From the NCBI RefSeq assembly GCF_003334305.1, contig NZ_QOWS01000015.1: a stretch of DNA of 64,000 nt, one strand, 5' to 3'. Below the pieces are notes generated by a model. The model was not told the origin of the DNA. It did no database searches and saw only the letters and a program-made list of their open reading frames with translations. Origin of the DNA: Escherichia coli (GTDB taxonomy: Bacteria > Pseudomonadota > Gammaproteobacteria > Enterobacterales > Enterobacteriaceae). Positions 30,868 through 32,261 of the stretch are shown one piece after another; position 1 is the stretch's first letter; each line of letters begins with the position of its first letter. The position numbers and the translations under genes are program-made.

Positions 30868-31209
30868 ATGATGAAAAAAAGTATTCTGACGTTTCTGTTA
30901 CTCACCAGTTCTGCAGCGGCGCTGGCTGCACCGCAGGTGATTACCGTCAGTCGTTTTGAAGTGGGTAAAGACAAATGGGCGTTTAATCGCGAAGAGGTGA
31001 TGCTGACTTGCAGACCGGGTAATGCTTTGTATGTCATTAACCCAAGTACCCTCGTGCAGTATCCTTTAAACGATATCGCACAAAAGGAAGTTGCCAGTGG
31101 GAAGACTAAAGCCCAACCCATTTCGGTGATTCAGATTGATGATCCTAACAATCCCGGCGAAAAAATGAGTCTGGCACCGTTTATAGAACGAGCTGAAAAA
31201 CTCTGTTAA
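30868..31209 (+). CDS. yebY: DUF2511-family periplasmic protein
   Basis: 113 aa with signal peptide; terminator immediately downstream. Confidence 0.8.
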
Positions 31210-31243
31210 TTACCTAAAATAGCCTTTTGATTTCCAATAAAAA

Positions 31244-31280
31244 AACCGCCTCAGTTCTTTCACCAGAACGGGCGGTTTTT
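31244..31280. terminator. terminator after yebY (A-run upstream and T-run downstream, so likely bidirectional)
   Basis: AAAAAACCGCC-tcagttctttcaccagaacg-GGCGGTTTTT. Confidence 0.6.
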
Positions 31281-31367
31281 AACATTTCAGCTGATGACCA
31301 CCACGCTTTTTATTGACCATTTTGCACGCAAACTGGAAAACCTGGCGTCGTCATCTATTCTTAAAGG

Positions 31368-31470
31368 GCAAGGCAACTAAGCCTGCATTAATGCCAACTT
31401 TTAGCGCACGGCTCTCTCCCAAGAGCCATTTCCCTGGACCGAATACAGGAATCGTGTTCGGTCTCTTTTT
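31368..31470 (+). ncRNA. sdsR: small regulatory RNA SdsR (RyeB)
   Basis: Sequence recalled as SdsR (GCAAGGCAACTAAGCC...); ends in hairpin GACCGAA-N13-TTCGGTC plus TCTTTTT; lies between yebY and pphA. Confidence 0.6.
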
Positions 31471-31604
31471 ATCTGTTAAAAGCCAGAAGCATTTCCTTCG
31501 CTGACTTTATAGTCAACCATAACACACACTCTACTGTCTGAGTCCAGCGTTTTTTAACATTCTTGTTAAGATTATGTGATCTTTAGCGCGGGAGGAAAAT
31601 ATTG

Positions 31605-32261
31605 ATGAAACAGCCTGCGCCCGTTTATCAGAGAATTGCGGGTCATCAATGGCGACATATCTGGCTTTCTGGCGATATACACGGTTGTCTTGAGCAGTTG
31701 CGCCGCAAATTATGGCATTGTCGTTTTGATCCGTGGCGAGATTTACTTATCTCAGTAGGAGACGTTATCGATCGTGGGCCGCAAAGTTTACGTTGTCTGC
31801 AGTTACTGGAACAACATTGGGTTTGTGCGGTAAGAGGCAATCATGAACAGATGGCGATGGATGCGCTGGCATCCCAGCAGATGTCTTTGTGGTTGATGAA
31901 TGGCGGCGACTGGTTTATTGCGCTGGCAGATAATCAACAGAAACAAGCGAAAACGGCGCTGGAAAAATGTCAGCATTTGCCCTTTATTCTTGAAGTACAC
32001 AGTCGTACCGGCAAACATGTTATTGCTCATGCCGATTATCCAGATGATGTTTATGAATGGCAAAAGGACGTTGATTTGCATCAGGTCTTGTGGAGCCGCT
32101 CGCGATTAGGTGAACGCCAAAAAGGGCAGGGAATTACAGGTGCTGATCATTTCTGGTTTGGTCATACACCGTTGCGACATCGCGTGGATATTGGCAACCT
32201 GCATTATATTGATACCGGTGCTGTCTTTGGGGGCGAACTGACTCTTGTGCAATTGCAATAA
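31605..32261 (+). CDS. pphA: Ser/Thr protein phosphatase 1
   Basis: 218 aa from ATG 31605, with GGAGG at 31591-31595; metallophosphatase motifs GDIHG and GNHE. Confidence 0.85.
   Translation: MKQPAPVYQRIAGHQWRHIWLSGDIHGCLEQLRRKLWHCRFDPWRDLLISVGDVIDRGPQSLRCLQLLEQHWVCAVRGNHEQMAMDALASQQMSLWLMNGGDWFIALADNQQKQAKTALEKCQHLPFILEVHSRTGKHVIAHADYPDDVYEWQKDVDLHQVLWSRSRLGERQKGQGITGADHFWFGHTPLRHRVDIGNLHYIDTGAVFGGELTLVQLQ

Follow-up and report, generated by a model that had tools for sequence, protein, structure and literature searches.

The sdsR/ryeA sense/antisense small RNA locus in the yebY-pphA spacer of an Escherichia coli strain

Results

Identity of the locus

The spacer between yebY and pphA in the window, by which we mean the whole 64,000-nucleotide stretch of E. 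coli DNA that was analysed, is almost certainly the canonical E. coli sdsR/ryeA locus, consisting of two convergent, fully overlapping small-RNA genes. The spacer runs from 31210 to 31604, between yebY (30868-31209, plus strand) and the ATG of pphA at 31605 on the same strand, and is thus 395 bp long, as a preceding sequence-only reading of this DNA had stated. It is present as an exact string in K-12 MG1655 (100% identity), and the mapping is ungapped, with the window position being equal to 1954574 minus the K-12 coordinate. In the genes that flank the spacer, 25 of 3501 positions are different from those of K-12, indicating that the source strain is other than K-12 itself. A 621-bp query around the spacer gave matches in all 5426 complete E. 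coli genomes (5426/5426), many of them at 100%.

The sequence-only reading had recognized the SdsR/RyeA pair in this spacer, and had proposed a covariance-model search to check it. We scanned the whole window with the Rfam models at their gathering thresholds, which yielded three matches, two of them inside the spacer. For SdsR_RyeB (RF00111), the match at 31371-31470 on the plus strand scored 114.4 bits (gathering score, 38), with an E-value of 1.8e-21, and covered all 100 model positions. For SraC_RyeA (RF00101), the match at 31474-31330 on the minus strand scored 175.1 bits (gathering score, 37), with an E-value of 2.9e-40, and covered all 145 model positions. Both families were therefore found at full length, far above their gathering scores and on the predicted strands, and the K-12 genes b4433 and b4432 are annotated at exactly these positions, which bears out the proposed pair. 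Based on the K-12 coordinates, sdsR (ryeB; b4433, 1923104-1923207) occupies 31367-31470 on the plus strand (104 nt), and ryeA (sraC; b4432, 1923066-1923337) occupies 31508-31237 on the minus strand (272 nt). What this analysis itself contributes is the identity with K-12, the matches to the covariance models, the motifs of promoters and terminators, and the data on conservation and covariation; the transcript ends, sigma-factor dependence, mutual degradation, interference and read-through come from experiments on the identical K-12 sequence.

Elsewhere in the window, the scan reported the cspA-thermoregulator model at 46961-47421 on the plus strand (135.7 bits, with a gathering score of 78), over yobF (46981-47124) and cspC (47137-47346). 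Here, the model matches the paralogue cspC including its coding sequence, and not cspA itself.

sdsR, its promoter and its terminator

The sdsR gene is located directly downstream of yebY on the same strand, in line with the synteny described for RF00111, according to which SdsR lies immediately 3' of yebY, whichever gene comes after (PMC3333887). Primer extension and RACE have shifted the SdsR start by 1 nt in the downstream direction relative to the previous annotation, to the equivalent of 31368, and have placed its 3' ends at +100 to +102, corresponding to 31467-31469 (Choi et al. 2019, PMC6610125). The promoter (31334-31361, plus strand) consists of a -35-like TGGAAA at 31334-31339, a 16-bp spacer and the -10 hexamer TATTCT at 31356-31361, whose identity follows from the mutagenic primer PM_SdsRR (PMC6610125). 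Fröhlich et al. have listed the features that confer sigma-S selectivity, being a C at -13, a G or T at -14, a C at -8, an A/T-rich discriminator and a 16-bp spacer (PMC3333887). All of these can be read from the sdsR promoter: the -10 region tCTATTCTtaa (31354-31364) shows, counted from the start at 31368, a C at -13 (31355), a T at -14 and a C at -8, and is followed by an A/T-rich discriminator. Sigma-S RNA polymerase transcribes SdsR in vitro, with Rho-independent termination (PMC6610125). Both the RpoS-dependent accumulation of SdsR in the stationary phase and its association with Hfq have been shown experimentally, for the identical sequence in K-12 as well as in Salmonella (PMC6610125, PMC3333887). 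The predicted fold of SdsR has a free energy of -32.5 kcal/mol (z = -4.0).

SdsR ends in an intrinsic terminator at 31436-31470, in which an 11-bp stem (31436-31464) with a loop of 7 nt is followed by the tail CUUUUU (31465-31470). A plus-strand terminator had been predicted before at 31443-31470; its existence and its end are confirmed, but the 5' arm starts at 31436, 7 nt ahead of the predicted position 31443. The built-in promoter and terminator scan reported no relevant promoter, and the SdsR terminator was the sole terminator-like site, compared to 0.7 expected, so the terminator scan is uninformative on its own. The SdsR terminator is read through into pphA (PMC6610125), and this leakiness therefore feeds the expression of pphA, the neighbouring gene for protein phosphatase 1, which lies outside both small RNAs (31605-32261, plus strand; from its reading frame and annotation). 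In K-12, the pphA transcript is mainly an sdsR-pphA read-through RNA (PMC6610125).

ryeA and the bidirectional terminator

Since ryeA, as mapped to 31508-31237 on the minus strand, encloses 31367-31470, RyeA covers all of SdsR as well as the sdsR promoter, and it contains the exact complement of SdsR over 104 nt. Three adjacent RyeA starts have been reported, the most downstream of which is the annotated 5' end at 31508, with the others 1-2 nt upstream (PMC6610125). The promoter core at 31524-31516 on the minus strand is an extended -10 element, TGtTATGGT, in which a TG precedes TATGGT; this is the -10 that was mutated in K-12 with primer PM_RyeAF, which changes the plus-strand ACCATA (31516-31521) to CTCGAG (PMC6610125). 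No convincing -35 hexamer was found for ryeA. The sequence CTGGAC is located at a distance of 20 bp from the -10 element, and a -35 may be dispensable for this promoter because of its extended -10. In vitro, sigma-70 RNA polymerase transcribes RyeA, and termination is Rho-independent (PMC6610125). As in the description of RF00101, ryeA is thus antisense to sdsR with full cover, and is served by a sigma-70 promoter and an intrinsic terminator of its own.

This terminator is a hairpin at 31241-31280, flanked by an A-run at 31239-31245, which is a U-run on the minus strand, and by a T-run at 31276-31280. Because of these two runs, we regard it as an intrinsic terminator that works in both directions, for yebY on the plus strand and for RyeA on the minus strand. 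The folding energy of the hairpin is -20.6 kcal/mol (z = -4.0) for the minus strand and -19.8 kcal/mol (z = -5.1) for the plus strand, and for neither strand did any of 200 shuffled sequences reach this stability. A bulge in the stem explains why the simple terminator scanner passed over the hairpin. A hairpin with a T-run on the minus strand at 31238-31276 had been put forward earlier as the end of the antisense transcript, and indeed it coincides with the annotated RyeA 3' end at 31237 and with the 3'-RACE ends at +261 to +270, which correspond to 31248-31239 (PMC6610125).

Coding potential

The assertion that the spacer has no protein-coding potential holds in substance. A mechanical search gives one open reading frame of 63 codons with a TTG start at 31313-31504 on the plus strand, overlapping SdsR, so that the spacer might encode a small protein instead of, or beside, the RNAs. 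Apart from the existence of this frame in the window, the data argue against such a product: K-12 carries no annotation for it, the start codon is a TTG, and in-frame stops break the frame in 101 of the 106 orthologous loci listed, including those of Salmonella, Citrobacter, Enterobacter and Klebsiella. Conservation of the SdsR body is nearly equal at codon positions 1, 2 and 3 (0.97, 0.96 and 0.94), without a marked relaxation of the third position. We therefore rejected this frame as a gene, and consider a small protein from the spacer extremely unlikely.

Conservation of the two RNAs

A search of species-representative genomes with an SdsR-core pattern gave at least 120 loci, of which 106 with full flanks were analysed. 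They span Escherichia, Salmonella, Citrobacter, Enterobacter, Klebsiella, Serratia, Yersinia, Hafnia, Dickeya, Rahnella, Sodalis and other genera. Among these 106 loci from the matches listed, column identity to the window was 0.90-1.00 over SdsR (31383-31472) and 0.88-0.89 over the -35 and -10 blocks of its promoter, and it was 0.23-0.38 at 31473-31512, just downstream of the SdsR terminator. In 35 diverse sequences the terminator helix (helix 3) was paired in 100%, with changes on both sides in 4 of its 11 pairs, and over the whole SdsR structure 12 cells were changed on both sides, compared to a mean of 2.7 in shuffled alignments, while none of 500 shuffles reached 12. The Rho-independent terminator hairpin of SdsR is therefore backed by compensatory changes. 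The middle helix is invariant but uninformative for covariation, since the retrieval pattern fixed its sequence, and the 5' helix (helix 1), with 75% of its cells paired, is unreliable because indels misregister the 5' alignment.

Two of the retrieved loci, from an uncultured Paraglaciecola MAG and an uncultured Erwinia MAG, share with SdsR the middle hairpin and have a 3' module that resembles a terminator, but their 5' third and upstream sequence are unrelated. The terminator stem of the Erwinia locus has a compensatory G-C pair, and the label Paraglaciecola refers to a genus outside the enterobacteria. These loci may be divergent SdsR relatives.

Read-through into pphA raises the question whether the spacer is essentially the promoter and leader of pphA, with the short RNAs as attenuation products of this leader. 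That pphA is transcribed mainly from the sdsR promoter, via terminator read-through (PMC6610125), is what this explanation would predict. However, SdsR is conserved downstream of yebY irrespective of the next gene (PMC3333887), conservation among the 106 loci from the matches listed collapses just past the SdsR terminator, and SdsR has trans targets of its own (PMC6610125). The leader function is therefore an added role of the locus and not an alternative to SdsR, and as a full explanation of the spacer it is very improbable.

The antisense RNA is less well conserved. The ryeA promoter region is poorly conserved beyond close relatives, with identities to the window of 0.23-0.61 among the same 106 loci from the matches listed (0.61 for the block around the -10), and the segment that belongs to RyeA only (31283-31332) scored 0.25-0.51 in this set. 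An antisense promoter of the TATGGT type is common to E. coli, Enterobacter, Kluyvera, Citrobacter werkmanii and Cedecea, and a differently placed TGgTATAA is found in Salmonella, E. albertii, Klebsiella oxytoca and Trabulsiella. The latter placement agrees with the report that the sraC promoter is located ~35 bp further upstream in Salmonella and Shigella (PMC3333887). The conservation data thus indicate strong selection on SdsR and a weaker, lineage-specific maintenance of RyeA.

These differences are the basis for the main rival explanation, in which only SdsR is functional and RyeA is tolerated antisense transcription of little physiological importance, stopped by chance by the yebY terminator. 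Besides the low identity of the ryeA promoter and of the RyeA-only part compared to SdsR, and the shifting position of the antisense promoter between genera, it would account for the presence of sraC in only about half of the species examined (PMC3333887) and for the mere ~1.5-fold increase in SdsR when SraC is absent, on the basis of which Fröhlich et al. doubted that SraC is essential for SdsR control (PMC3333887). Against this stand genetic data from K-12, where mutants in the ryeA -10 show earlier SdsR, higher pphA, and lower tolC and yhcB expression (PMC6610125). Moreover, according to work cited in PMC6610125, overexpression of SdsR in K-12 is toxic through the repression of yhcB, and this toxicity is rescued by overexpression of RyeA. 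Finally, an RNAfold-based search found an A-run/T-run hairpin at a matching distance upstream of sdsR, with differing stem sequences, in at least 53 of the 106 loci listed, so the bidirectional hairpin has been kept in place. We give low weight to a mere bystander role of RyeA and consider it unlikely.

The attachment site in sdsR

The last 26 bp of sdsR (31445-31470, plus strand) form a prophage attachment site with the attB core ACAGGAATCGTGTTCGGTCTCTTTTT. This sequence occurs once in the window, and the attachment site is therefore empty here. In approximately 237 of the 5426 complete E. coli genomes (~4%) the spacer is interrupted, and two of these cases were read in detail. In E. coli 2003-3014, sdsR is separated from the ryeA promoter by a lambdoid prophage of ~46.8 kb, with ACAGGAATCGTGTTCGGTCTCTTTTT as a direct repeat at either end. 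Besides ralR, recET and tail genes, this prophage carries genes for an integrase and an excisionase and the effector gene nleG7. In FDAARGOS_944 (NZ_CP065613.1), the spacer contains an IS1A insertion, and the piece to the right of it starts again at window position 31377, inside the 5' end of sdsR. A search of a phage collection with the att core gave two weak matches only, to a Salmonella prophage fragment and to an Actinobacillus phage, which is too little to name the phages that use this site.

Some of the orthologous loci contain degenerate extra copies of the 3' arm of the SdsR terminator within ~150 bp downstream of sdsR. These copies are GTATTCGGTCTTTTT-like, sometimes with tandem AATTTCGGG repeats, and were seen in Salmonella arizonae, E. 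albertii, Serratia and Dickeya; the window has none of them. They probably mark earlier integration events at the att site.

As summarised in PMC7380047, the last 23 bp of ryeB are the att site of the Salmonella phage PhiW104, and lysogeny alters ryeA. For an effect of a prophage on the SdsR/RyeA/pphA circuit we found a description in the literature for PhiW104 in Salmonella and none for E. coli. It would be conceivable that occupation of attB by effector-carrying lambdoid prophages rewires this circuit in E. coli, or that the ~130 nt specific to RyeA (31237-31366) or the read-through leader (31471-31604) have a role of their own, but we consider this quite unlikely.

Discussion

The SdsR/RyeA locus is fully known already, as RyeA/RyeB and SraC, with detailed experiments on exactly this sequence, so its detection here carries little weight as a discovery. 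It does illustrate that a sense/antisense small-RNA pair and its terminators are recognisable from raw sequence alone. Both RNAs lack annotation in most RefSeq E. coli records, and sdsR and ryeA are still missing from most automated E. coli annotations; in NZ_AP018802.1, the yebY-pphA spacer is without any annotated feature despite its identity to the K-12 sequence. The locus is also a textbook case, combining in 300 bp the promoters of two sigma factors, mutual RNA destruction, interference, a leaky terminator and a phage att site.

In the mechanism expected from the experiments on K-12, sigma-S RNA polymerase would start at 31368 in the stationary phase and produce an SdsR of ~102-104 nt, which would associate with Hfq and would base-pair with and repress trans-encoded mRNAs, namely tolC and yhcB in E. 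coli and ompD in Salmonella. Part of this transcription would pass the SdsR terminator and give the pphA mRNA. In growing cells, sigma-70 RNA polymerase would start at ~31508 on the minus strand and generate the 272-nt RyeA, ending at the bidirectional yebY terminator. SdsR and RyeA would form a perfect duplex that leads to their mutual degradation, involving RNase III, and the transcription of ryeA itself would interfere with that of sdsR and pphA. Together, these effects would limit SdsR and pphA expression to the stationary phase. For K-12, it has been reported that SdsR and RyeA degrade each other and that ryeA transcription interferes with the transcription of sdsR and pphA (PMC6610125).

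Compared to K-12 sdsR (b4433) and RF00111, the window has the same sequence, the same site downstream of yebY, the same sigma-S promoter with a C at -13, the same three-hairpin fold and the same intrinsic terminator. Neither the RNA nor the spacer differs, and the few strain-level substitutions are found in the flanking genes only. Likewise, ryeA is identical to K-12 b4432 and RF00101 in its sequence, its TGtTATGGT promoter, its start at 31508 and its end at the bidirectional yebY terminator, without any difference. The ryeA/sraC genes of Salmonella, Shigella and E. albertii differ in this respect, as their promoter is located ~35 bp further upstream than that of E. coli. With PhiW104 of Salmonella DT104, the locus shares the use of the last ~23-26 bp of sdsR as integration core, and in some E. 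coli a lambdoid prophage is present there; in this window the att site is empty.

The sequence-only reading had described the antisense RNA as a sponge. Antagonism by pairing is supported by the literature, but the label fits less well, since what has been documented is mutual duplex degradation, transcriptional interference and read-through into pphA. RyeA is a cis-encoded antagonist of SdsR, for which sponge is an acceptable, though loose, shorthand. A review, as summarised in another paper, treats SraC/SdsR only as a candidate cis-encoded antagonist. Like the trans-encoded sponge RNAs, RyeA pairs with a small RNA and thereby lowers its active pool. Unlike these RNAs, RyeA is cis-encoded, is a perfect complement over 104 nt, and acts by mutual destruction involving RNase III and by interference at the DNA level. 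In the primary literature RyeA is called an antitoxin or an antagonist and not a sponge, the term antitoxin being used because RyeA rescues the toxicity that SdsR exerts by repressing yhcB.
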